DNA of 64,000 bases from Acidobacteriota bacterium (GTDB lineage Bacteria > Acidobacteriota > Vicinamibacteria > Vicinamibacterales > JAENWD01), in contig JBKPSY010000027.1 of NCBI GenBank assembly GCA_046735235.1, positions 2,389-66,388 on the forward strand, read 5' to 3'. The position numbers and the translations under genes were made by a program. A model generated the notes under the pieces. The model ran no database searches, was not told the DNA's origin, and was given only the letters and a program-made list of their open reading frames with translations. This document shows positions 1,907 to 46,258 of this stretch, piece by piece (position 1 is the first letter of the stretch; every line of letters starts with the position of its first letter).

Positions 1907-1964
1907 AACCGGGTCGGTCGGGTCGGGCGGGTCGGTCCGGTCACTCGGGTCGGGCGGGTCGGTC
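1907..1964. repeat. phased 9-bp GGTC iteron array (about 6 units)
   Basis: AACCGGGTC GGTCGGGTC GGGCGGGTC GGTCCGGTC ACTCGGGTC GGGCGGGTC GGTC, in the serS-galU divergent spacer. Confidence 0.8.
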
Positions 1965-4971: not shown

Positions 4972-5820
4972 ATGGCCGGCGCGCTTCTGCTGGTTGCTAC
5001 GCCAATCGGAAATCTGGAAGACATCACGCTCAGGGCGCTGCGAGTCCTGCGTGAAGCCGATCTGATTGCCGCGGAGGACACGCGGCGCACAGGCAAGCTA
5101 CTTGCGCACTTCGGCATCACGACGAAGACCGTGAGCCTGCACGAGCACAACGAGCGACGGAAAATGTCGGCGCTGCTCGACCGCGTCCGCGCCGGCGCGA
5201 CGGTCGCCGTCGTCTCCGATGCCGGCATGCCGGTCATCTCGGATCCGGGCCGCGAGCTGATCCGGGAAGCGGTCTCCAGTGGCATCAAAGTAGAGATTGT
5301 TCCTGGGGCGTCTGCCCTAACAATGGCGATTACGGGGGCCTCCCTGGATGGCGACCTGACGACCTTCGCGGGCTTTCCACCGTCGAGAAGCGGCGAGCGG
5401 CGCCGATGGCTGGGTGATTTGAGTCGCCTGCCGGGGGCTCTCGTGCTGTTCGAGGCGCCTCATCGCCTGCGTCAGACCCTCGAGGACGTCCAAGCCGTGC
5501 TGGGAGACCGGCCGGTCGTTGTCGCCCACGAGCTGACAAAGCTTCATGAATCGTGGCACCGAGGTTTCGCGAGAGAGCTCCTGGCGAACCCGATGCTGCC
5601 GGAAAAAGGGGAGTTCACTCTGGTGATAGGACCGGGTTCCGGCGAGACGGAAGTACCGGCACTTCCCGACGCAGAGACGGTCTGGTATGAATTTGGTCGA
5701 TTAACCAAATTCGGCGGACGTACCCGAAAAGAGGCAATTGCAGAGCTGGCCCAAAGGTACCGCCTTCCCAGGCGCCAGATCTACGCGCTGGTCGAGGCGG
5801 CCAAGGAATCTGGTGAATGA
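4972..5820 (+). CDS. rsmI: 16S rRNA (cytidine1402-2'-O)-methyltransferase
   Basis: Carries LLLVATPIGNLEDITLRALRVLREADLIAAEDTR (tetrapyrrole-methylase fold of RsmI). ATG at 4972 was chosen because the track start at 4903 would overlap the divergent DUF885 gene. Confidence 0.9.
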   Translation: MAGALLLVATPIGNLEDITLRALRVLREADLIAAEDTRRTGKLLAHFGITTKTVSLHEHNERRKMSALLDRVRAGATVAVVSDAGMPVISDPGRELIREAVSSGIKVEIVPGASALTMAITGASLDGDLTTFAGFPPSRSGERRRWLGDLSRLPGALVLFEAPHRLRQTLEDVQAVLGDRPVVVAHELTKLHESWHRGFARELLANPMLPEKGEFTLVIGPGSGETEVPALPDAETVWYEFGRLTKFGGRTRKEAIAELAQRYRLPRRQIYALVEAAKESGE

Positions 5821-7193
5821 CCAAAATTGACATCCATGTGGTCGTCCTTGCCGCGGGCAAGGGCACCCGGATGAAGTCGGCGATCCCGAAAGTCCTGCAC
5901 AGGATTGCCGGCAAGCCGCTGCTCGACCACGTCCTGGCTGCCGCCGCGCCGCTTGGTCCGGCCTCCACGACCGTGGTGATAGGGCACCAGGCGGACATGA
6001 TTCGGGAGGCCTATGCCAACCGGCCGGATATGGGCTTCGTTGTCCAGGAGCCACAGCTGGGCACGGGACACGCCCTGCTCATGGCCGAACCCCGGCTCGA
6101 GGGCGCGGCCGGAACCGTCCTGCTGCTGTACGGCGATGTGCCGCTCCTGAGCACTGCCACGCTCCAGGCCCTTGTCGGCACCCACCGTGCTGAACACGCG
6201 AGCGCGACCGTCCTCACGGCGACCCTCGACCACCCCTTCGGCTACGGCCGCATCGTCCGCGCGGACGGTGCCATCGCGCGCATCGTCGAGGAACGAGATG
6301 CCTCGCTGGCGGAACGTGAGATTCGAGAGATCAACGCAGGCATCTACGCGTTCGAGCTCGGCCCGCTGTTCGACGCGATTCGCGGCATTGCGTCGGCCAA
6401 TGCGCAGGGCGAGTACTACCTGCCGGACCTGGTGAGCATCTACCGCGCGCGCGGTCTCGGCGTGACCACCGTGCCCGTCAAGAACGCCGACGAAATCCGC
6501 GGCATCAACAGCCGCGCGGAACTGGCTGAAGTGGAGCGCATCGTGCGACAGACCAAGAACGAAGCGTTGATGGCGGCCGGCGTGACGATCATCGATCCGG
6601 CGACGACCTACGTGCACCCGGACGTCACCATCGGCGCGGACACGGTGCTGCATCCGAATGTCTACCTCGAGGGCCACACGGCCATTGGCGCGGCCTGCGA
6701 GATCCACAGCGGCACGCGCATCGTCGACTCGACGCTCGGCGATCGAGTCACGGTGCGCAACTACTGCATCATCACCGAGTCATCCGTCGCCGCCGAAGCC
6801 GTGCTCGGACCGTTCGCCCACCTGCGTCCCTCGAGCGACGTGAAGGAAGGCGCCCACGTCGGCAACTTCGTCGAGCTGAAGAAGACGACGCTCGGCGCCG
6901 GGTCGAAGGCGAACCACCTGGCATACCTCGGCGACGCGACTATCGGCAACGGCGTCAACGTCGGAGCCGGAGTGATCACCTGTAACTACGACGGGACGAA
7001 GAAGCATCCCACCGTCGTCAAGGACGGCGCGTTCATCGGAAGCGACTCCGCGCTCGTCGCCCCCGTGACGGTCGGCGAGGGCGCCTACGTCGCCGCAGGA
7101 TCGACGATCACCGAGGATGTTCCGGCCGGCGCTCTCGGCATCGCGCGGGGCCGCCAGGTCAATAAAGAGGGATGGGCCAGGAAGAAACGGTAA
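5817..7193 (+). CDS. glmU: bifunctional UDP-N-acetylglucosamine pyrophosphorylase / glucosamine-1-phosphate N-acetyltransferase
   Basis: 458 aa with N-terminal LAAGKGTRMKS and a C-terminal left-handed beta-helix of hexapeptide repeats. ATGA overlap with the rsmI stop. Confidence 0.96.
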   Translation: MTKIDIHVVVLAAGKGTRMKSAIPKVLHRIAGKPLLDHVLAAAAPLGPASTTVVIGHQADMIREAYANRPDMGFVVQEPQLGTGHALLMAEPRLEGAAGTVLLLYGDVPLLSTATLQALVGTHRAEHASATVLTATLDHPFGYGRIVRADGAIARIVEERDASLAEREIREINAGIYAFELGPLFDAIRGIASANAQGEYYLPDLVSIYRARGLGVTTVPVKNADEIRGINSRAELAEVERIVRQTKNEALMAAGVTIIDPATTYVHPDVTIGADTVLHPNVYLEGHTAIGAACEIHSGTRIVDSTLGDRVTVRNYCIITESSVAAEAVLGPFAHLRPSSDVKEGAHVGNFVELKKTTLGAGSKANHLAYLGDATIGNGVNVGAGVITCNYDGTKKHPTVVKDGAFIGSDSALVAPVTVGEGAYVAAGSTITEDVPAGALGIARGRQVNKEGWARKKR

Positions 7194-7309
7194 AGTGCGA
7201 AATGCGAAGTGCGAAGTGCAAAGTAGCTGGCGGGTGGCTCGTTGCCCAGTTCACTGTTCACTTCGTATTCCGCACTTCACTTTGCAGTTCGCAGTTGGCA
7301 TTTAGCACT
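7194..7309. repeat. 31-bp-arm inverted repeat built from GCGAAGT-type heptamers (glmU-glmS spacer)
   Basis: The arms 7194-7224 and 7279-7309 are complementary at 27 of 31 positions. The left arm is itself a tandem GTGCGAA/GCGAAGT repeat. Confidence 0.8.
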
Positions 7310-18756: not shown

Positions 18757-19039
18757 GTGGCGATGACCTCGAGTGGTGTGGGTGCCGCCCGGAACCGGTG
18801 TTTCCTTCTTAGTTCCAGGAGTTTTAGAGGATCAAGAAATTATACTGAAAATAGGTGCTGTCGAAAAGCACAATCTGAAAGTTTTAGTCCTTACGGGACA
18901 ATAACTTAGGCTGTGCAAGTTTCTGTGGATGAGGGGCCGTGCGTCCTGGCGCTGCAGACTGTGGAAAACCCGCCGTCTCAGCCGGTCCACAGCCGGGCTT
19001 ACCCGGGGACCGGTGGAAGCCTGTGGAAAGCGCGAAATC
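18757..19039. other. candidate oriC segment (AT-rich unwinding region plus DnaA boxes) in the dnaA-dnaN spacer
   Basis: About 18801-18925 is conspicuously AT-rich in a GC-rich genome. It is followed by same-orientation boxes TGTGGATGA (18924-18932), TGTGGAAAA (18960-18968) and TGTGGAAAG (19022-19030). Confidence 0.6.
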
Positions 19040-20401
19040 CTACCGGAAAGACTCGAGGAGGTTGTGGATGAGGGTGTTGAAATCTCCGTCCCGCTTTCGC
19101 ATGTCCTCGATCTTGCGGATGGAGTGAATCACCGTCGAGTGGTGCTTGCCGCCGTAGCTGCGGCCAATCTCCGGCAGCGACGCGTGCGTGAGTTGCTTGC
19201 ACAAGTACATCGCAACCTGGCGGGGGATGGCGACCGACTTCGAATTGTTGCGCGACTTCAGGTCCGCGACCTTCAACTGATAGTAGTCGGCGACGAACTT
19301 CTGGATGATCTCGATCGTGACGGCCTTCTCGTCGTGATCCAGGATGTTCTTCAGCACGTCCTGCGCGAGCGTGAGCGAGATCGCCGAGTTCGTGAGCGAC
19401 GCATACGCAACCAGGCGCGTGAGCGATCCTTCGAGCTCGCGGATGTTCGACTTGATCTTCCCGGCGATGTAGATCGCGACGTTGTCGGGCAGCGGCACCG
19501 CGTCGGCTTCCGCTTTTTTCTTCAAAATCGCGACTTTTGTCTCGAGATCGGGCGGTTGGATGTCCGCAATCAAGCCCCACTCGAACCGCGATCGCAAGCG
19601 CTCTTCGAGCTGCGGAATTTCGTGCGGCGGACAGTCGCTGCTGATGACGATCTGCTTCTGCGAGTCGTAGAGCGCGTTGAACGTGTGGAAGAACTCGGTC
19701 TGCGTGCCTTCCTTGCCCGCCAGAAACTGCACGTCGTCGACCAGCAGCACGTCGACCGACCGATAGCGTTCACGGAAGTCGAGGATCCGGTCGTACCTGA
19801 CCGCGTTGATCATCTCGTTCATGAACCGCTCGGACGAGATGTAGGTGAGTTTGAAGGACGGGTTGTGCTGCAGGACATAGCGTCCGACGGCGTGCATCAG
19901 GTGCGTCTTGCCAAGACCCACGCCGCCGTACACGAAGAGGGGGTTATAAGAGCGTGACGGTGCTTCGGCGACCGCGCGCGACGCCGCGTGCGCGAACTGG
20001 TTCGACGACCCGACGATGAAGGTCTCGAAGGTGTAGCGGGGGTTGAGACCCGCCGGCGCCGTGACCGGGTCCGGGGCTGCCGCTCCGATGTCCTCGCTCA
20101 GCCCGTCGAGAGCCGGCACAACCGCCGGGTCTGGAACCGGGGTGCGCTCGGGCGGCGGCGCCTGGCCCTCCGCCACGAACGAAATACCGGTTCCCGCGCG
20201 TCCCAGGTCGCTCAGGGCCTCGTTCAGCACCGCCGAGTAGTGTTTGTTCAGCCAGTCGCTGAAGAGGGCATTCGGAACCCGCACGACGATTGTCGTGCCC
20301 TGGTCCTCGACGTAAGCCGTGGGCTTGAACCAGGTGTTGTAGCTGTGCCGGTTGATTTTGACGTCGATCCGGGCCAGGACCTCGTCCCAGATATTGCTCA
20401 T
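19040..20401 (-). CDS. dnaA: chromosomal replication initiator protein DnaA
   Basis: 453 aa with an AAA+ core (GGVGLGKTHLMHA) and a C-terminal DnaA-box binding domain (GGKHHSTVIHS). Confidence 0.98.
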   Translation of the reverse strand: MSNIWDEVLARIDVKINRHSYNTWFKPTAYVEDQGTTIVVRVPNALFSDWLNKHYSAVLNEALSDLGRAGTGISFVAEGQAPPPERTPVPDPAVVPALDGLSEDIGAAAPDPVTAPAGLNPRYTFETFIVGSSNQFAHAASRAVAEAPSRSYNPLFVYGGVGLGKTHLMHAVGRYVLQHNPSFKLTYISSERFMNEMINAVRYDRILDFRERYRSVDVLLVDDVQFLAGKEGTQTEFFHTFNALYDSQKQIVISSDCPPHEIPQLEERLRSRFEWGLIADIQPPDLETKVAILKKKAEADAVPLPDNVAIYIAGKIKSNIRELEGSLTRLVAYASLTNSAISLTLAQDVLKNILDHDEKAVTIEIIQKFVADYYQLKVADLKSRNNSKSVAIPRQVAMYLCKQLTHASLPEIGRSYGGKHHSTVIHSIRKIEDMRKRDGDFNTLIHNLLESFR

Positions 20402-20580: not shown

Positions 20581-20612
20581 TTTTCCACAATTTTTTCCAC
20601 AGGTGTGGAAAA
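20581..20612. promoter_or_regulatory. cluster of three DnaA boxes upstream of dnaA
   Basis: TTTTCCACA (20581-20589), TTTTCCACA (20593-20601) and inverted TGTGGAAAA (20604-20612). All match the relaxed consensus TTWTNCACA. Confidence 0.7.
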
Positions 20613-20786: not shown

Positions 20787-20942
20787 ATGAGTAAGGGAAA
20801 GCGCACGTTTCAGCCGAACAACCGCCGGCGCCGCCGGACGCACGGATTCCTCGTCCGGATGCGGACGAAGAACGGCCAGACCGTCCTGAAGCGCCGTCGC
20901 GCCAAGGGCCGCAAGCGCCTGTCGGTTTCGTCCGAGCGGTAA
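20787..20942 (+). CDS. rpmH: 50S ribosomal protein L34
   Basis: 51 aa, [21 protein letters not shown].... The track ORF starts 9 codons upstream at a non-ATG codon. Confidence 0.95.
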
Positions 20943-20943
20943 G

Positions 20944-20988
20944 ACCCGGGTCTCGCAGGTCCGGCGGGTCAGCCGGGTCGGTCAGGTC
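20944..20988. repeat. phased 9-bp GGTC iteron array (5 units)
   Basis: ACCCGGGTC TCGCAGGTC CGGCGGGTC AGCCGGGTC GGTCAGGTC, between rpmH and rnpA. Confidence 0.8.
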
Positions 20989-20993
20989 GTGAC

Positions 20994-21344
20994 ATGGACC
21001 AGCGATTCCGGGCCGTCGCCCATATCCGGCAACGCCGGGACTTCCAGACCGTCTACGACACCGGCCGCAAACTCCACGGCCGGACGATGACCATCTTCGC
21101 GCTCTCGAGGCCGGGCACCGGCTCGCGGCTCGGCATCGCGGCCACCAGAAAGCTCGGATCCGCCGTCGAGCGGAACCGGGCCAAGCGGCTCGTCCGGGAA
21201 CTCTTTCGACTGAACCCAGCCCCACCCGGCCTCGACATCGTGGTGGTGCCGCGGCGGGCGCTGTTCGATGCCACCTTCAGCAGTCTCCAAGCCGAGTATG
21301 TCGCCACTTTGGGGCGTCTCCGTCCGTCCGGACTCCGCGGCTAA
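20994..21344 (+). CDS. rnpA: ribonuclease P protein component
   Basis: 116 aa with a KLGSAVERNRAKRLVRE (RNR-box) motif. It follows rpmH as in most bacteria. Confidence 0.92.
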   Translation: MDQRFRAVAHIRQRRDFQTVYDTGRKLHGRTMTIFALSRPGTGSRLGIAATRKLGSAVERNRAKRLVRELFRLNPAPPGLDIVVVPRRALFDATFSSLQAEYVATLGRLRPSGLRG

Positions 21345-24039: not shown

Positions 24040-24711
24040 GTGGCCGGGAAGAACCTTCACGATCGCCTGACCAGGCGCCTGCGCAAGGCCGGCCTCTCTC
24101 CCGACCGCGCGCTGCTCAACGGCCTCGAGCAGTATTTCCAGCTATTGGCGCGCTGGAACGCCAAAATCAACCTCACCGCCTTTTCTCTGGCGGATCCTAA
24201 CGACGAGGCGATCGACCGGTTGCTCGTCGAGCCCGTGGTCGCTGCGCGCCATCTGACCTCTGCGACCGCGATCATCGACATCGGGTCTGGCAGTGGCTCG
24301 CCAGCAATTCCGCTCCGGTTGGCGCTCGGACCCGCACGACTCACGCTCGTCGAAGCGAAGACGCGCAAAGCAGTGTTCCTTGTCGAGGCGCTGAGGCACC
24401 TCGAGATTGGCGATGGCTCGGTTGAGACCGCGCGCTTCGAGCAACTCCTGACTCGTCCAGAGCTTCATGAGGCGTTCGATGTGTTGACGATCCGGGCTGT
24501 CCGGGTCGAGGCACGAACGCTTCTGACGCTTCAAGCGTTCTTGCGCCCGGGCGGGCGGCTACTGTGGTTCCGCGGCCCAGGAGGACCCGATATCCCATCA
24601 GAAACCATCGTCCCCCTTTCTTGGGCCGCGACATATCCGCTTGTCGAAAGTCTCCGAAGCCGGCTGGTTGTTCTGACGAAGCAGAGCCATCACAGTCGGA
24701 CCAAGGCGTGA
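24040..24711 (+). CDS. rsmG: 16S rRNA (guanine527-N7)-methyltransferase
   Basis: 223 aa with LLARWNAKINLT and the SAM motif IDIGSGSGSPAIPL. Its GidB position before parAB is canonical. Confidence 0.9.
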   Translation: MAGKNLHDRLTRRLRKAGLSPDRALLNGLEQYFQLLARWNAKINLTAFSLADPNDEAIDRLLVEPVVAARHLTSATAIIDIGSGSGSPAIPLRLALGPARLTLVEAKTRKAVFLVEALRHLEIGDGSVETARFEQLLTRPELHEAFDVLTIRAVRVEARTLLTLQAFLRPGGRLLWFRGPGGPDIPSETIVPLSWAATYPLVESLRSRLVVLTKQSHHSRTKA

Positions 24712-24727
24712 CGTTCCACGTGGAACG
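24712..24727. promoter_or_regulatory. parS: parS centromere site 1
   Basis: CGTTCCACGTGGAACG, a perfect 16-bp palindrome matching the parS core GTTNCACGTGNAAC. It abuts the rsmG stop codon. Confidence 0.85.
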
Positions 24728-24729
24728 GG

Positions 24730-24836
24730 TGCTCAGGTCTCCTCAGGTCTAGCAGGTCCAGCAGGTCTAACCGGTCGGTCAGGTCTAACCGGTCGGTCGA
24801 ATGCGCGTTCCGGTCGAGCGGTTGGTCCCGGTCGGA
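24730..24836. repeat. 9-bp GGTC iteron array, left arm of the rsmG-parA spacer
   Basis: ..CTCAGGTC TAGCAGGTC CAGCAGGTC TAACCGGTC GGTCAGGTC TAACCGGTC GGTC.., becoming degenerate toward 24836. Confidence 0.75.
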
Positions 24837-24865
24837 TGGGTGGGATTCGCCGTCTTACGACCTTG

Positions 24866-24881
24866 TGTTCCACGTGGAACG
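24866..24881. promoter_or_regulatory. parS: parS centromere site 2
   Basis: TGTTCCACGTGGAACG, with the same 14-bp core as site 1. It is centred between two inverted 9-bp repeat arrays. Confidence 0.85.
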
Positions 24882-24930
24882 TTTCATCGCGTGGTGAGAG
24901 TTCATTCGATGCGCGCCGACGACGACCTTT

Positions 24931-25015
24931 AGACCGATTCGGCCCGATGACCAGCTAATCCGACCCGTACGACCGGTTCGACCCGTTCGACCTGCTCGAC
25001 CTGTTTGACCTGGCT
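24931..25015. repeat. 9-bp GGTC iteron array in inverted orientation, right arm of the rsmG-parA spacer
   Basis: The reverse complement reads GAGCCAGGTC AAACAGGTC GAGCAGGTC GAACGGGTC GAACCGGTC GTACGGGTC... Confidence 0.75.
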
Positions 25016-25081
25016 CTCCCGCCGCTCTATGCTTTCGAAGCAAAAGGTGTGAAGAACCGCAAATAGGTCGTGTGACCTAAT

Positions 25082-25879
25082 ATGGCCAGAATCGTCGCGG
25101 TTACCAATCAAAAGGGCGGCGTGGGAAAGACGACGACCGCCATCAATCTCGCAGCCTCACTCGCACTTGCGGACCAGAGAGTGTTGCTCGTCGACCTCGA
25201 CCCGCAGGGCAACATGACCAGCGGCGTGGGGTTGCGCGGGCAGCAGGCGCCTGGCGGCACGGTCTACAGCGCGCTCGAGAGCGACGCGGGCGTCGACCCA
25301 GCCAGCTTCGTTATCCCAAGCGCCGTCGACAACCTGAAGGTCGTGCCCGCCGACGGGAGCCTCACCGGGGCCGAGATCGAGCTCGTCGGGCTCACCGACC
25401 GCGAGCGCCGGCTGCGGCGTCTGCTCGAGCCCCTGCGCGCGGACTTCGACTGGATCTTCATCGACTGTCCGCCCTCGCTCGGCCTGCTCACGCTCAACGC
25501 GCTCGTCGCCGCCGACGCGGTGTTGATTCCCCTCCACTGCGAGTACTTCGCGCTCGAGGGCCTCGCGGCGCTCGTGTCGACGATGAGGCGCGTGCGCGTG
25601 TCGCTGAATCCGTCGCTCGACATCGAAGGCGTGCTGCTGACGATGTACGACGAGCGCACCAACCTCGGCCAGCAGGTCGCGCGCGACGTGCGCGAGTTCT
25701 TCAAGGAGAAGGTCTACACCACGGTGATCCCGCGCAACGTGCGGCTCGGCGAGGCGCCCAGCCACGGCACGCCGGTCGTGTTGTACGACGCGAAGTCGCG
25801 CGGCGCGGAGGCCTATCTCGCGCTGGCACGCGAGGTGCTCGAACGCAGCGCGAAGCCGGAACTGCAGAGCGCGCAGTGA
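25082..25879 (+). CDS. parA: chromosome partitioning ATPase ParA/Soj
   Basis: 265 aa with the deviant Walker A NQKGGVGKTTT. Confidence 0.96.
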   Translation: MARIVAVTNQKGGVGKTTTAINLAASLALADQRVLLVDLDPQGNMTSGVGLRGQQAPGGTVYSALESDAGVDPASFVIPSAVDNLKVVPADGSLTGAEIELVGLTDRERRLRRLLEPLRADFDWIFIDCPPSLGLLTLNALVAADAVLIPLHCEYFALEGLAALVSTMRRVRVSLNPSLDIEGVLLTMYDERTNLGQQVARDVREFFKEKVYTTVIPRNVRLGEAPSHGTPVVLYDAKSRGAEAYLALAREVLERSAKPELQSAQ

Positions 25880-25914: not shown

Positions 25915-26796
25915 ATGGAGAAGCGACCGGCGCTCGGCAAAGGCCTGAGCGCGCTGATTCCTGACGAGCCACCGGCGGCCGATCGCACTGGCCTGATCGA
26001 GATCGACGTCGATCGCCTCGCGCCGAGCGACTACCAGCCGCGCACGATGATGGACACGGCGCGACTCGACGACCTGGCCGCGTCGATCCGGGCCAACGGC
26101 GTGATTCAGCCGATCGTCGTTCGTAAGACCGCTGACGGGTATCGGATCATCGCAGGCGAGCGCCGCTGGCGCGCGGCACAGAAGGCCGGTCTCACGCGCG
26201 TGCCCGTCGTCGTGAAGGAGGTGACCGGCCCCGACGCGCCGGGCCGGCTGCTGCAGATGGCTCTCATCGAGAACATCCAGCGCGAAGACCTGAACGCGAT
26301 CGAGGAGGCGAAGGCCTATCGCCGCCTCGCGGACGAGTTCTCGCTGACGCAGGACGCGATCGCCGCGGCCGTGGGCAAGGATCGCGCGACGATTGCCAAC
26401 ACGCTGCGCCTGCTGAAGCTGCCCGACGAGTTGCAGAACGATCTGTCCGCCGGCGCCCTGACGATGGGACACGCGCGCGCGATCCTGGCCCTCGCGTCCG
26501 AGGCGCAGCAGGTGCGCGTCGCTCGCGAAGTGAAGACTCGTGGCCTCAGCGTCCGCGAGACCGAGGCGCTCGTGAAGGCGGCGCTCGAAGGCCGGGAGAT
26601 CGACGGCCCGACGCCGCGCGCGGCGCGTCCCGTCACGCCGCCAGACGTCCACACGCGCGCCGCGGAAGAGCGCCTGAAGATCCACCTCGGCACGCGCGTG
26701 CGCATCGTCCGCAAGGAGAAGGGTGGGCGCATCGAGATCGATTTCACGAGCGAAGACGAGTTGATCCGGATCTTCGAGAGCCTCACCGAGCGATAG
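25915..26796 (+). CDS. parB: chromosome partitioning protein ParB/Spo0J
   Basis: 293 aa with the ParB box GERRWRAA and an HTH region. Confidence 0.96.
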   Translation: MEKRPALGKGLSALIPDEPPAADRTGLIEIDVDRLAPSDYQPRTMMDTARLDDLAASIRANGVIQPIVVRKTADGYRIIAGERRWRAAQKAGLTRVPVVVKEVTGPDAPGRLLQMALIENIQREDLNAIEEAKAYRRLADEFSLTQDAIAAAVGKDRATIANTLRLLKLPDELQNDLSAGALTMGHARAILALASEAQQVRVAREVKTRGLSVRETEALVKAALEGREIDGPTPRAARPVTPPDVHTRAAEERLKIHLGTRVRIVRKEKGGRIEIDFTSEDELIRIFESLTER

Positions 26797-33249: not shown

Positions 33250-33255
33250 GGAGCA

Positions 33256-33323
33256 GTCCATGGGGTTATGAGTCCATGGGTCCATGGGCAAGAACCCCCC
33301 ATGCACCCATGCACCCATGCACC
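33256..33323. repeat. hairpin whose arms are tandem 9-mers (GTCCATGGG x3 versus CCCATGCAC x3), atpA-atpG spacer
   Basis: The left units GTCCATGGG pair 8 of 9 with the right units CCCATGCAC. A T5 run follows at 33331-33335. Confidence 0.75.
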
Positions 33324-38919: not shown

Positions 38920-41900
38920 ATGCCTTCCTCGACGTCCCTCTCTCTTCAGGCCCTGCTCCGATCGGCGGCCGGCCGCGCCGGATTCGCCCAGGATCGCGGC
39001 ACGATTTCCGGGCTGACGCCGGCAGGCCGCGCGCTGTACGCGGCGCTTCGCGCGCATCAGGCGGGGGACCGATTAATCGTGCTGGTCGTCCCCACCGACG
39101 CGGACGCAGACGAGACCGCGGCCGACACGCGATTCTTCCTGGCGGCGCTCGAGGGGCTCGACGACCGCGCGGCCGCAGCCGCGGTGCTGCCGTTGCCCTC
39201 GCACGAGGTGGACCCGTATCGCGGGCTGTCGCCACACTTGCACGTGGCGTCCGCACGTGCGCGGGTGCTTGCGTCGATCGCATCCGGCGACGTGCGTGTC
39301 GTCGTCGCGTCGGCGCCGGCGCTGCTGCCTCGCCTGGTCCCGCCGCGTCGGCTGGCGTCGGCCGTGCTCGCGCTGAGACTCGGGGCCGAAGTCGATCCGC
39401 AGCTGCTCGGCGAGCATCTCGTCGAGTCTGGATTCAGCCGCGAAGATCCCGCCGACGAGCACGGAGAGTTCGCCGTGCGCGGCGGTATCGTCGACGTTTT
39501 CCCGCCCGGCGACGATCAGCCCGTCCGCATCGAGTTCGCCGGAGATTCGATCGAATCGATCCGCCGGTACGACCCGTCGACCCAGCGATCGACGGCCGCC
39601 ATCGACCAGGTCACGATCCTTCCGATCCGCGAACGCCTCGGGCAATCAGGCGCGCCGGCCGACCCGACGCTGACGCTCGAAGCCTCGGTCATCGACTACT
39701 TCACGACACGCCGCACGCCGGTGTATCTCGTCGGTGAGCTCGAGCAGGCACGCGCGGCCGCGGAGAAGTTCCTCGAGCAGATCGCGGCAAGCTTCGAAAC
39801 CGTGGCGGCGACAGCGAACAAGGGCGCCGGTCCCGTCGCGCCCCCGGAGCGGCTCTTCGTGTCGGCCGAAGACATTTTCGGGCGGCTGTCGAATGCCGTG
39901 CGCCTCGAGGCGTTGTCGGTCGAAGGCGGTCCGGAGACGGCCACCGTGCATCACGTCCGCTGTCAGGTGGTGCCCGAGTTCAAGGGGCGCATCCAGGACT
40001 TCATCGACGCGCTGCGCAAGAGTCGCAGCGACGGCGAGCAGGCGATCTTCGTGGCGTCCACCACCGGACGCGCCGAGCGGATGATCGAACTCGCACGCGA
40101 CTACCAGGTCGTCGCCACGCCGGCCGACCGCACCGAGGACGCGCACTTCGCGGCGCTGCTCGTCACCGTCGGGCACCTGGCCCGCGGGTTCCGCCTGCCT
40201 GACGGCCAGCTGACGATATACGCCGAAGCCGACGTCTTCGAAGAGGAGCGTCGCGGGCCGGAGCAGCGACGCAGGGCCGCCACGCGTGCGTTTCTCTCCG
40301 ATCTGCGCGATCTCAAAGTCGGCGACTTCGTGGTGCACGTCGATCACGGCATCGGCGTCTTCGTCGGGTTGAAGCAGCTGTCGGTCGCGCCCGGCGAGCC
40401 GCCGCAGGAGTTCATGGAGCTCCGCTACTCGGGCGAGGACAAGTTGTTCGTGCCGGTCGAGCGGCTCGACCTCGTCCAGAAGTACACCGGCGCCGCCCGT
40501 CCGCCCGTCGACCGGCTTGGCGGCCAGACGTGGGAGAAGGCCAAGACGCGCGTCAAGAAGGCGATGCGCGACATGGCCGAAGAGCTGCTCAAGCTCTACG
40601 CCGCGCGGAAAGCCGTTCCCGGCCACGCGTTCGCCGCAGACTCGCACTGGCAGCAGGAATTCGAAGGCGGCTTTCCGTACGATCTGACGCCGGACCAGTC
40701 GACGGCGATTGCCGACATCAAGACCGACATGGAAACCGCCTCGCCGATGGATCGGCTGCTCTGCGGCGACGTCGGCTACGGCAAGACGGAAGTCTCGATG
40801 CGCGCCGCGTTCAAGGCCGTCATGGACGGCAAACAGGTCGCCTTTCTCGCGCCGACGACGATCCTCGCGTTCCAGCACCTGCGGACGCTGACCGAGCGGT
40901 TTGCGGGCTTCCCGGTGCGGATCGACATGATCAGCCGGTTTCGCACGAAGGCGGAACAGAAAGTCGTGCTCGAGGATCTCGCCGCCGGCAAGATCGAGGT
41001 CATCGTCGGCACCCATCGGCTGCTCTCGAAGGACGTCCAGTTCCGCGATCTCGGCCTGCTCGTGGTGGACGAAGAGCAGCGATTCGGTGTCGCCCACAAG
41101 GAGCGGATCAAGCAGCTCCGGAAACGCGTGGACGTCCTGACGATGACGGCCACCCCCATCCCGCGGACGCTCAACATGTCGCTCGTCGGCATTCGCGACA
41201 TGTCGGTGATCGAGACGCCGCCGAAGGACCGCCTGTCGATCCAGACGCACGTGGTGAAGTTCGACGCGGAAGTCATTCGCCGCGCGATTCGCCACGAGCT
41301 GGAACGCGGCGGGCAGGTCTACGTCGTGCACAACCGCGTCGAGTCGATCTTCTCGATCGCGAACCTGATCACGCGGCTCGTGCCCGAAGCGAAGATCGCC
41401 ATCGGCCACGGTCAGATGGGAGAGGAGCAGCTCGAGAAGACGATGCTGGACTTCATGGCGCACAAGTACGACGTGCTCCTCGCCACGACGATCGTCGAGA
41501 ACGGCCTCGACATCCCCAACGCGAACACGATGATCATCAATCGCGCCGACCGGTACGGCCTGTCGCAGCTCTACCAGCTGCGCGGCCGCGTCGGGCGATC
41601 CGATCGTCCGGCGTACGCCTACCTGCTGATCCCGCCGGAAGAATCGCTGTCGCCGGTCGCGAAGAAGCGGCTGGCGGCCATCAAGGAATTCAGCGATCTG
41701 GGCAGCGGCTTCCGTGTCGCCGCGCTCGACCTCGAGATCCGCGGCGCCGGCAACCTGCTCGGCGGCGAGCAGAGCGGCCATATGGAGACGGTGGGCTTCG
41801 AGACGTACACGAAGCTGCTCGAGGAAACCGTCCGCGAGCTCAAGGGCGAAGAAATCGAAGACGACATCCGGGCGACGGTGAACCTCCGGGTGGACCTGAA

Positions 41901-42522
41901 GATCGACGACGCCTACATCCCCGACATGAACCAGCGGCTGATGGTCTACCGCCGCATCGCGTCCGCCCGCAGCGAGGACGAGCTCGAGCGGGCCGTCGCC
42001 GAGGTGCGCGACCGCTACGGCCCGCCGCCGGAGTCAATTCTCAACCTCGCCGATTACGGGCGCATCCGCGTCATGGCGGACCAGCTGGGGCTCGAAACCA
42101 TCGATCGCGAAGGCGACCGCGTCGTGTTCCGCTTCGGCCCGAAAACCCCGCTCGACCCGGCGCGCCTGGTGACGTTCCTGGAGCGCCGCAAGGACGTGAC
42201 GCTGGTGCCGCCGGCGGGGATGCGGTTGGATTTGAAGGCTGGGCAGCCGGGTCTGACAGGTCAAACAGGTCACACGGGTCAAACGGGTCAGACAGGTCGG
42301 GCGGGTCAGCCGGGCCGCGGCGGGCCTGGCTCGTCGCGGCGAGGGCGTGGGCCGGCCGAGGCCGTGGCCCCAGCCTCGTGGTGGACAGCCCGGGCCACGG
42401 CGGGGGAAGTGACCGCCGGCTTCACGAAGGCGGAGATCCTGAAGCCCAAGGCGGAAGACCCTCGCGGCCCCAGCGGCGTCTTTACTCGAGTGGGGGGCCT
42501 GTTGAGCGAGCTCCTCCCGTGA
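38920..42522 (+). CDS. mfd: transcription-repair coupling factor Mfd
   Basis: 1200 aa with a UvrB-homology N-terminus, an RNAP-interaction domain, an SF2 translocase (GDVGYGKTEV, DEEQRFG) and a TRCF C-terminal domain. It carries an in-frame Gly-X-Y repeat insertion at about 42245-42316. Confidence 0.96.
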   Translation: MPSSTSLSLQALLRSAAGRAGFAQDRGTISGLTPAGRALYAALRAHQAGDRLIVLVVPTDADADETAADTRFFLAALEGLDDRAAAAAVLPLPSHEVDPYRGLSPHLHVASARARVLASIASGDVRVVVASAPALLPRLVPPRRLASAVLALRLGAEVDPQLLGEHLVESGFSREDPADEHGEFAVRGGIVDVFPPGDDQPVRIEFAGDSIESIRRYDPSTQRSTAAIDQVTILPIRERLGQSGAPADPTLTLEASVIDYFTTRRTPVYLVGELEQARAAAEKFLEQIAASFETVAATANKGAGPVAPPERLFVSAEDIFGRLSNAVRLEALSVEGGPETATVHHVRCQVVPEFKGRIQDFIDALRKSRSDGEQAIFVASTTGRAERMIELARDYQVVATPADRTEDAHFAALLVTVGHLARGFRLPDGQLTIYAEADVFEEERRGPEQRRRAATRAFLSDLRDLKVGDFVVHVDHGIGVFVGLKQLSVAPGEPPQEFMELRYSGEDKLFVPVERLDLVQKYTGAARPPVDRLGGQTWEKAKTRVKKAMRDMAEELLKLYAARKAVPGHAFAADSHWQQEFEGGFPYDLTPDQSTAIADIKTDMETASPMDRLLCGDVGYGKTEVSMRAAFKAVMDGKQVAFLAPTTILAFQHLRTLTERFAGFPVRIDMISRFRTKAEQKVVLEDLAAGKIEVIVGTHRLLSKDVQFRDLGLLVVDEEQRFGVAHKERIKQLRKRVDVLTMTATPIPRTLNMSLVGIRDMSVIETPPKDRLSIQTHVVKFDAEVIRRAIRHELERGGQVYVVHNRVESIFSIANLITRLVPEAKIAIGHGQMGEEQLEKTMLDFMAHKYDVLLATTIVENGLDIPNANTMIINRADRYGLSQLYQLRGRVGRSDRPAYAYLLIPPEESLSPVAKKRLAAIKEFSDLGSGFRVAALDLEIRGAGNLLGGEQSGHMETVGFETYTKLLEETVRELKGEEIEDDIRATVNLRVDLKIDDAYIPDMNQRLMVYRRIASARSEDELERAVAEVRDRYGPPPESILNLADYGRIRVMADQLGLETIDREGDRVVFRFGPKTPLDPARLVTFLERRKDVTLVPPAGMRLDLKAGQPGLTGQTGHTGQTGQTGRAGQPGRGGPGSSRRGRGPAEAVAPASWWTARATAGEVTAGFTKAEILKPKAEDPRGPSGVFTRVGGLLSELLP
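42245..42316 (+). repeat. 9-bp GGTC iteron array (8 units) in frame inside mfd
   Basis: AGCCGGGTC TGACAGGTC AAACAGGTC ACACGGGTC AAACGGGTC AGACAGGTC GGGCGGGTC AGCCGGGCC. It translates to GQPGLTGQTGHTGQTGQTGRAGQPG. Confidence 0.85.
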
Positions 42523-46072: not shown

Positions 46073-46130
46073 TTTGACGCCTCCTTCAGGGCCCGGCCGT
46101 AACCGGGCCTTATCACTGGGGGCAGTGTAG

Positions 46131-46258
46131 GGGGAAATGGGAAAGCGGAAAATAGCGAATAGGGAATACCGAATAGGGAATACCGAATAGGAATAGGGAA
46201 AGCCGCACCGAGTGGCGGCTCCGTGCCTTGTCTCCCTATTCGCTATTCCCTATTTCCC
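46131..46258. repeat. AT-richer hairpin with tandem GAATAGGGAATACC units
   Basis: The left arm is GGGAAATGGGAAAGCGGAAAATAGCGAATAGGGAATACCGAATAGGGAATACCGAATAGGAATAGGGA. The right arm TCTCCCTATTCGCTATTCCCTATTTCCC contains the GT2 stop codon. There is a central AGCCGC...GCGGCT mini-hairpin. Confidence 0.7.

Follow-up and report, generated by a model that had tools for sequence, protein, structure and literature searches.

Inverted tandem-repeat arrays at the parS sites of an acidobacterial origin region: partition iterons or members of a dispersed repeat family?

Why should a chromosomal centromere carry two arrays of short tandem repeats, arranged as mirror images around one of its parS sites? 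This question is raised by the 370-bp spacer between an rsmG-like gene and parA in a 64,000-nucleotide stretch of DNA from an Acidobacteriota bacterium (assembly GCA_046735235.1, contig JBKPSY010000027.1, positions 2,389 to 66,388; Vicinamibacteria, Vicinamibacterales), the whole of which is called the window here. The original prediction had treated the arrays as a feature of the centromere and had likened them to the iterons of plasmid centromeres. In our study, arrays of the same units were found at 1910–1964, 20944–20988, and 42248–42314 of the window, the last of them translated within Mfd, and several relatives were found to contain parS and parAB without them. With about even confidence, we consider that a normal centromere has been colonised by a lineage-specific variable-number repeat family, and that the arrays are not partition iterons.

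The gene in front of the spacer was an rsmG-like 16S rRNA methyltransferase gene (24040–24711, plus strand), taken from the list of open reading frames (ORFs). It matched TIGR00138 RsmG with E = 2e-26 at a score slightly below the curated cut-off, and the Pfam family GidB was present in the orthologues of relatives. Its stop codon (24709–24711) abutted parS-1, and the ATG of parA was found at 25082, which leaves the 370 bp of the spacer. parS-1 (CGTTCCACGTGGAACG, 24712–24727, no strand) was recognised by sequence match, and parS-2 (TGTTCCACGTGGAACG, 24866–24881, likewise without strand) lay midway between the inverted arrays. Both sites matched the parS consensus TGTTNCACGTGNAACA and the 14-bp core was exact in both. 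Two perfect palindromes had been claimed; this is correct for parS-1, a perfect 16-bp palindrome, whereas the outermost base pair of parS-2 is T/G, so that this site is perfect over its 14-bp core only. The 14-mer GTTCCACGTGGAAC occurred exactly twice in the 64-kb window. When up to two mismatches were allowed, three matches were found against 0.28 expected, a number reached in none of 100 shuffles.

The spacer was followed by parA (25082–25879, plus strand; NCBIfam ParA-type ATPase matches) and, after a gap of 35 bp, by parB (25915–26796, plus strand; TIGR00180, E = 1.5e-55) in an operon of the order parA-parB-selD. No extra adaptor gene was present in this operon, and its sole DNA-binding partner was a canonical ParB with its own parS sites. 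The window covers an origin region, with gyrB, dnaN, and dnaA (19040–20401) on the minus strand, followed on the plus strand by rpmH, rnpA, yidC, an R3H/jag-like gene, rsmG, parA, parB, selD, and the atp operon. Three TTTTCCACA DnaA boxes were found at 20581–20612 in the dnaA-rpmH spacer, and the parS sites lay about 4 kb from these boxes and from dnaA. A further cluster of DnaA boxes (TTTTCCACA / TCATCCACA) was observed around the dnaN-dnaA spacer, at 18924–19071. oriC is probably located at the DnaA-box clusters, about 4 kb from parS. Judged from the sequence, the replicon is the main chromosome and the region is an ordinary chromosomal ParABS centromere, and the prediction of a parS region upstream of parA-parB was thus borne out. 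The accompanying statement that chromosomal parS sites are normally isolated did not hold, as two to six parS sites upstream of parA were frequent in other loci (four in L073, three in L061, four in L066, and six in L070). A parS site at the equivalent position, just 3' of rsmG, was also found in the related loci L081, L082–L084, and L217.

The left array contained NNNCRGGTC units on the plus strand (24732–24836) and was detected by Tandem Repeats Finder (TRF), repeat search, chain detection, and the unit logo. Its 9-bp phase was strict at 24743–24798 (TRF 3.1 x 18 bp, 84% matches) and irregular on either side. The right array contained the same units on the minus strand, read on the top strand as GACCYGNNN (24922–25012; TRF, repeat search, and chain detection), and was strictly phased at 24961–25012 (TRF 5.8 x 9 bp, 83% matches). 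The TRF periods of both spacer arrays were 9/18. The limits first given for the arrays were right when irregular units are counted, but only about half of each array is strictly phased. The inverted arms (24744–24796 and 24960–25012) were 53 nt long and 79% complementary, with 163 nt between them; their midpoint at 24878 lay inside parS-2, within about 5 bp of its centre, which agrees with the claim that the inverted arrays are centred on this site. The pattern GGTC-N5-GGTC-N5-GGTC with at most one mismatch was found 23 times in the window against 0.98 expected, and none of 100 shuffles contained as many. The distances between GGTC tetramers showed sharp peaks at 9, 18, 27, and 36.

The window contained five NNNCRGGTC arrays at four loci, all with the same logo, and their chained cores were found at 1912–1960, 20949–20988, 24746–24794, 24962–25010, and 42250–42307. 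The logo, NNN-C-R-G-G-T-C, was made from 26 units of all five arrays; the arrays were chosen on GGTC, and the C at position 4 was not a selection criterion. The unit first proposed for the spacer, NNNCNGGTC, is equal to this logo, but the logo describes a family of several loci and not a centromeric unit. One of the other arrays (1910–1964, plus strand; motif scan and chain detection) was present in the divergent spacer between serS and a galU-like gene, both assigned by Pfam. This spacer (1889–1972) was 84 bp long and 55 bp of it were GGTC array, so neither promoter can be clear of both the array and the coding regions; a TATACT/TATAGG element (1898–1905) could act in either direction. A second array (20944–20988, plus strand; motif scan and chain detection) lay between rpmH and rnpA, with the DnaA-box cluster about 350 bp away, and had an orthologous array in L081 at 5761–5825. 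Isolated CRGGTC hexamers outside the arrays were not enriched in the window (127 observed against 118 +/- 10.5 expected), and a single-site CRGGTC regulon was rejected on this number. A rule of strand relative to oriC or transcription was also rejected: GGTC was on the top strand in four of the five arrays, but one of these four lay across oriC, and L081 contained a sense-orientation GACC array between atpA and atpG.

The remaining array of the family (42248–42314, plus strand) was found in the C-terminal tail of Mfd, where it was in frame and encoded (Gly-X-X)n. The Mfd ORF (38920–42522) contained 1200 residues; the TRCF domain, the last conserved one, ended at residue 1082 and the array began at residue 1108. 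An array of 5–10 units was present at the same place, always in frame, in L211–L216 (six loci with four distinct array versions), whose SurA was 92–96% identical to that of the window; the range of 5–10 units was seen across five distinct genomes. The tail 3' of the array varied mostly at synonymous sites among these loci. The reading frame and the mostly synonymous differences in the downstream tail indicate translation of the array into a (Gly-X-X)n linker. The whole extension (42241–42522) reached about 95 residues past the last conserved domain and consisted of the variable (Gly-X-X)5–10 linker followed by a conserved tail ...EVTAGFTKAEILKPKAEDPRGPSGVFTRVGGLLSELL.

A scan of genome contigs with ParA gave hits mainly in distant phyla, and L001 was the sole genome of moderate closeness. 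ParA relatives put the organism among the Acidobacteriota, and a SurA homologue with 58% identity carried the name Vicinamibacterales. The nearest species-level genome by ParA was that of an uncultured Acidobacteriota metagenome-assembled genome (MAG), with 73% identity, and an exact look-up of the window ParA sequence gave no match on record. In L081 (ParA 96% identical), four parS sites were interleaved with top-strand GGTC arrays and were followed by at least 12 bottom-strand units leading into the same promoter. L217, whose ParA fell into the 90%-identity cluster of L081, contained a parS site, four GAGCRGGTC units, a second parS site, ten GACC units, and the promoter. L082–L084 (ParA 90%) contained one parS site, a left array of 10-bp TGATCRGGTC units, a right array of GACCTGATCT units, and the promoter; the loop between their arrays was about 240 nt long and was devoid of parS. 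The repeat thus had a period of 9 bp or 10 bp, depending on the relative. In L086 (ParA 90%), parS was found directly beside the promoter, without a right array. L085 (ParA 84%) contained one parS site and an array before parA with a different core, GGAACC instead of GACCYG. A 5.5-kb insert (approximately; L085 4433–10000) was also observed there between rsmG and parA, with N6/N4 DNA methylase fragments, a DUF3800 gene, and a fragment of an IS1595-type transposase. In L087 and L090 (ParA 83–84%), the spacers measured 620–690 bp, contained one or two parS sites, and were devoid of arrays, and L001 (ParA 73%) contained one parS site in a spacer of about 100 bp with no array.

A GGTC array of at least four units was absent from all 80 of the more distant parA loci, and when TRF was applied to 91 loci, over 700 bp upstream of parA, strong arrays were obtained in this clade only. 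In the comparison of related genomes, to which the original prediction had looked for a decision, parS and arrays were both kept in four genomes with ParA identities of at least about 90%, but parS was kept without GGTC arrays at identities of 73–84%. The comparison showed the arrays to be dispensable for parS-parAB in slightly more distant relatives. A metagenome scan for five GGTC-N5 units returned at least 120 stretches, of which 80 were examined, and was too unspecific to map the family. Most of these 80 were perfect 9-mers of unrelated organisms or coding repeats of the collagen-like GGTCCN type, and only L102, L105, L114, L127, and L146 looked related.

The number of units changed between close relatives. 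The spacers of L082, L083, and L084, three samples with identical ParA, showed a few point differences and a single indel; its 20 bp, the sole length difference between L082 and L083/L084, corresponded to exactly two 10-bp units of the right array. In L081, the flanks were about 95% identical to those of the window and the promoter-side units were conserved, and the interior was rearranged by unit-sized indels. The unit-sized indels and the variable number of units mean that the arrays behave as variable-number tandem repeats. The window contained two parS sites against four in L081, its closest relative, and the alignment showed that parS copies had been duplicated together with segments of the array. 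The short-read metagenome contigs L086, L088, L089, and L218 were observed to end about 20–300 bp upstream of parA. The repeats of the spacer may break assemblies, and the region may be under-represented in short-read MAGs.

The arrays also touched the expression signals of parA. The likely parA promoter, TTGACC-17 nt-TATGCT (25005–25033, plus strand), was the sole sigma-70-like site in 24500–25200, where 0.1 were expected, and its -35 hexamer TTGACC (25005–25010) was the final unit of the right array. The TTGACC hexamer and the -10 element were kept in related loci including L081, L082, L083, and L086, and also in L217. A palindrome, TAGGTC-N4-GACCTA (25064–25079, no strand), was found 3 nt 5' of the parA ATG, with the array core as its half-site. 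The form AGGTC-N4-GACCT occurred once in the window against 0.04 expected. The arms of the palindrome were constant and its N4 was variable in L081, L082/83, L086, and L217, and promoter and palindrome together were conserved across five related loci and L217. The palindrome formed a small hairpin in all three of the RNA folds described below. parA was devoid of an obvious Shine-Dalgarno sequence, and the palindrome occupied that position. The palindrome could act as an operator or, as a hairpin, control the translation of parA.

Folding of the whole spacer as RNA paired the left array with the right array (z = -5.0 for the window, -9.7 for L082, and -9.0 for L081); in all three, every shuffle folded less well. 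The strong RNA hairpin suggested in the original prediction is supported by these predicted folds. The pairing is automatic for two inverted arrays of one unit, so it is not independent evidence for a selected structure and is not covariation. The loops between the arms ranged from 163 to 295 nt across the folded spacers, and the 3' arm overlapped the -35 hexamer of parA, so the parA mRNA itself would be without the hairpin. No U-tract or terminator-like site was found in 24500–25200, and with its loop of 163 nt the structure does not have the form of an intrinsic terminator. No Rfam family gave a match at gathering score anywhere in the window. The single arrays in 1906–1972 and 20941–20996 folded with z-scores of -1.1 and -2.2, respectively, at best slightly better than shuffles. 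Extrusion of a DNA cruciform, which had also been suggested, is unlikely with 163 nt between arms that are 79% complementary.

Other repeat families of the window were found as pairs of inverted arrays with short loops, namely AAGTGCG heptamers (7193–7300, intergenic), TCCATGGG/CCCATGCA octamers (33250–33323, between atpA and atpG), and GAATAGG heptamers (46130–46258, intergenic). Two of these three hairpins folded better than every shuffle (z = -3.5 and -4.2), whereas the octamer hairpin had a z-score of -1.3 and 23 of 200 shuffles folded as well or better. Similar elements were observed in relatives: inverted GGGATTC arrays after parB in L001 (4699–4782); AAGTGCG heptamers between parA and parB in L086 (932–963), where the unit recurs at another locus than in the window; and, in the soil metagenome contig L102, a GGTCGAGTA/TACTCGACC hairpin between two genes (z = -4.7). 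In the atpA-atpG spacer of L081, a period-8 GACC array was found in place of the octamers of the window. Intergenic tandem-repeat hairpins are a general habit of this lineage.

According to the explanation that we favour, the spacer would consist of two consensus parS sites for ParB loading, a sigma-70-type parA promoter, and a small palindrome at the ribosome-binding region, and a genome-dispersed NNN-CRGGTC tandem-repeat family (9 bp; 10 bp in one relative) would have expanded into this ordinary spacer. Whole units would be gained and lost, presumably by replication slippage, and the opposed arrays may be kept alike by common origin, or by template switching or recombination between the arms. 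The function of parS would be independent of the arrays. The last array unit supplies the -35 hexamer of the likely parA promoter, as read from the sequence, and a transcript reading through from rsmG is predicted to fold as a long hairpin around parS-2. The strictness of the hexamer core suggests that CRGGTC is read or generated by some agent acting on the nucleotide sequence, and a trans-acting factor that reads this core is possible.

Several observations weigh against a family that merely expands and decays. The core C-R-GGTC was constant, with C at position 4 in 26 of 26 units and mostly a purine at position 5, whereas the three linker positions were near-random (0.2–0.35 bits); simple slippage with neutral decay does not predict a fixed core between near-random linkers. 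In the Mfd arrays, 38 of 41 glycine codons were GGT, against 6.9% of the glycine codons in 12 genes of the window. The variable positions of the Mfd array were non-synonymous and its fixed positions included wobble positions, and this, together with the GGT bias, means that the motif is held at the nucleotide level and not by the protein. The order parS, GGTC array, inverted GACC array, promoter recurred in four distinct genomes although period and linkers had changed, and the conserved palindrome before the parA start codon shares the half-site of the arrays. The fixed core, the mirror layout, and the palindrome fit selection for a recognised motif. In addition, the dispersal was seen within the 64-kb window and in stretches of about 20 kb from relatives, all of them no further than about 25 kb from oriC.

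Alternatively, the arrays may be recognition arrays for a sequence-specific factor reading CRGGTC at 9–10-bp spacing, such as a nucleoid-associated protein, a cooperative direct-repeat regulator, or a topoisomerase-like enzyme, which we regard as possible although not probable. At the centromere, such a factor would enclose parS in a symmetric nucleoprotein structure, formed by the two opposed arrays and in contact with the -35 hexamer; with the palindrome as operator, parAB expression or ParB spreading would be coupled to the factor. The explanation accounts for a hexamer that stays constant between random linkers in all 26 units, through the change of period from 9 to 10 bp and of linkers between genomes, and against codon preference in Mfd. 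It also fits the same-half-site palindrome, unique in the window and conserved in relatives, the -35 hexamer formed by the last array unit, and the arrays that occur singly, for which a hairpin is not required. As a lead, GGTC and GACC fit the GRYC centre of the E. coli gyrase cleavage consensus. However, isolated hexamers are not enriched, one array is translated coding sequence, the unit number is polymorphic between near-identical strains, L086 has its parS beside the promoter without the right array in spite of a ParA identity of 90%, L085 has another core at the same position, and no candidate protein was identified. A more elaborate form, which we consider rather unlikely, is that CRGGTC repeated every 9–10 bp is a recognition code for an undescribed DNA-binding or DNA-processing factor of this acidobacterial lineage that coats origin-proximal arrays; its mirror-image filaments would bracket parS and touch the parA promoter, and would confine or regulate ParB clamps and the expression of parAB. 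The hairpin itself may instead be what is selected: the arrays would pair in the rsmG read-through RNA (or extrude in DNA) and, as an insulator, processing site, or stabiliser, keep rsmG transcription apart from the parAB operon, and the other intergenic inverted tandem-repeat hairpins of the genome would work likewise. This is doubtful. The inverted arrangement was indeed kept in four genomes with differing units, the array-pairing folds exceeded every shuffle, and every other family (window, L001, and L102) takes the form of an inverted pair with a short loop; the loop of 163–295 nt is, however, far above those of the other hairpins, no terminator-like site accompanies it, the structure is missing from the parA mRNA, the complementarity of same-unit arrays is automatic, and an inverted partner is missing for three of the five GGTC arrays.

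Iterons of the plasmid type, which would offer ParB or a dedicated partner a second platform and would assist loading or block sliding, are very unlikely in our judgement. The four parS sites interleaved with arrays in L081 and the position of parS between arrays in L217 and at the symmetry centre in the window would suit them, and a precedent is known from Deinococcus secondary replicons, which carry iteron arrays upstream of parAB (PMC7671480). The arrays are not locus-specific, however, as the same arrays occur away from any parS and even within a coding region; the operon lacks an adaptor gene; the symmetry centre of L082 is without parS; and the arrays are not retained wherever parS and parAB are retained, since relatives with ParA identities of 84% or less keep parS without them. 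The likeness of the right-array sequence CGTTCGAC to the parS half-site CGTTCCAC does not extend to the left array or to other genomes, and the idea of ParB half-sites was dropped because neither the left array nor those of L081, L082, and L217 show this likeness. Least credible is a mobile origin: a small element would have left behind the stretch that reaches from one array to the other, and its terminal inverted repeats would consist of subterminal repeats. Inverted arrays do flank a variable interior, but there are no defined ends and no target-site duplication, the interior or cargo is not conserved between genomes, single arrays exist, and the length changes by whole units.

Colonisation of a normal centromere by a variable-number repeat family would remove a tempting false lead: parS would not be paired with plasmid-style iterons, and no new partition component would be needed. 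What remains puzzling is a six-base core that is fixed across loci and genomes and against codon preference, in arrays which otherwise change fast. If a factor reads this core, these soil bacteria, a large group about which little is known, would possess a new type of system for chromosome organisation or regulation. If there is no such factor, the arrays would still be hypervariable markers, a source of low-complexity protein linkers, and possible assembly breakpoints.

The region downstream of the par genes showed a further regularity. An AbrB/MazE-type antitoxin-like gene and a Fic gene were observed just 3' of parB-selD in most relatives (L081 14185–14814, L082 5217–5845, L085 12751–13388, L087 9626–10254, and L217 3536–4113). 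In L081, the MazE-type gene alone was annotated there, beside an ORF of 118 residues without a Pfam hit.

Chromosomal ParABS systems of the Bacillus Spo0J or Caulobacter type have clusters of parS sites upstream of parA-parB near oriC. The system of the window is like them in its TGTTNCACGTGNAACA palindromes, in their place upstream of parA-parB, and in the presence of several copies, which is common in lineages both related and unrelated, and no essential difference was found, except that the parS copies of L081 are embedded in, and duplicated with, a tandem-repeat array. Plasmid iteron centromeres with small adaptor proteins include R1 parC/ParR, with 11-bp iterons flanking the promoter, the tetramer boxes of TP228 ParG, and the heptads of pSM19035 omega, and they come with a dedicated adaptor gene. 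The arrays resemble these in their short units with a small conserved core, in their fixed spacing, in their direct and inverted arrangement, and in abutting or overlapping the par promoter; they differ in that the adaptor gene is absent, the units occur beyond the par locus, copy number and period are variable, and a normal ParB with parS is already present. In Deinococcus radiodurans, arrays of 18-bp iterons (cisII and cisMP) were reported upstream of parAB on secondary replicons, and these iterons are themselves ParB-binding parS-like sites which overlap DnaA boxes (PMC7671480). The likeness lies in direct-repeat arrays immediately 5' of parAB, whereas here the arrays stand on the main chromosome beside canonical parS sites and have counterparts at other loci.

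Enterobacterial repetitive extragenic palindromes (REP) and bacterial interspersed mosaic elements (BIME) are single imperfect palindromes of about 35 bp with a short invariant tetranucleotide. The arrays share with them the dispersal as intergenic hairpin-formers between co-directional genes and the short invariant tetranucleotide, but REPs are not arrays of 9-mers. In the literature on GGTC tandem repeats and on repeats of Vicinamibacteria or Acidobacteria, we found no description of a GGTC nonamer family. Cyanobacterial short tandemly repeated repetitive (STRR) heptamers are dispersed short tandem repeats. Repeats of the heptamer TAACTGA were described from Beggiatoaceae, cyanobacteria, and Bacteroidetes, and their function is not known (PMC4679880). 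As in the TAACTGA and STRR families, a tandem unit is present at many mostly intergenic loci, and is restricted to a lineage, and some of the arrays lie in ORFs. The unit described here differs in having 9–10 bp with six fixed positions instead of a fully fixed heptamer, in its arrays being often inverted pairs, and in its host, an acidobacterium-like soil bacterium. Of the known systems, dispersed short tandem repeats, with the TAACTGA heptamers as an example, come closest to the arrays.

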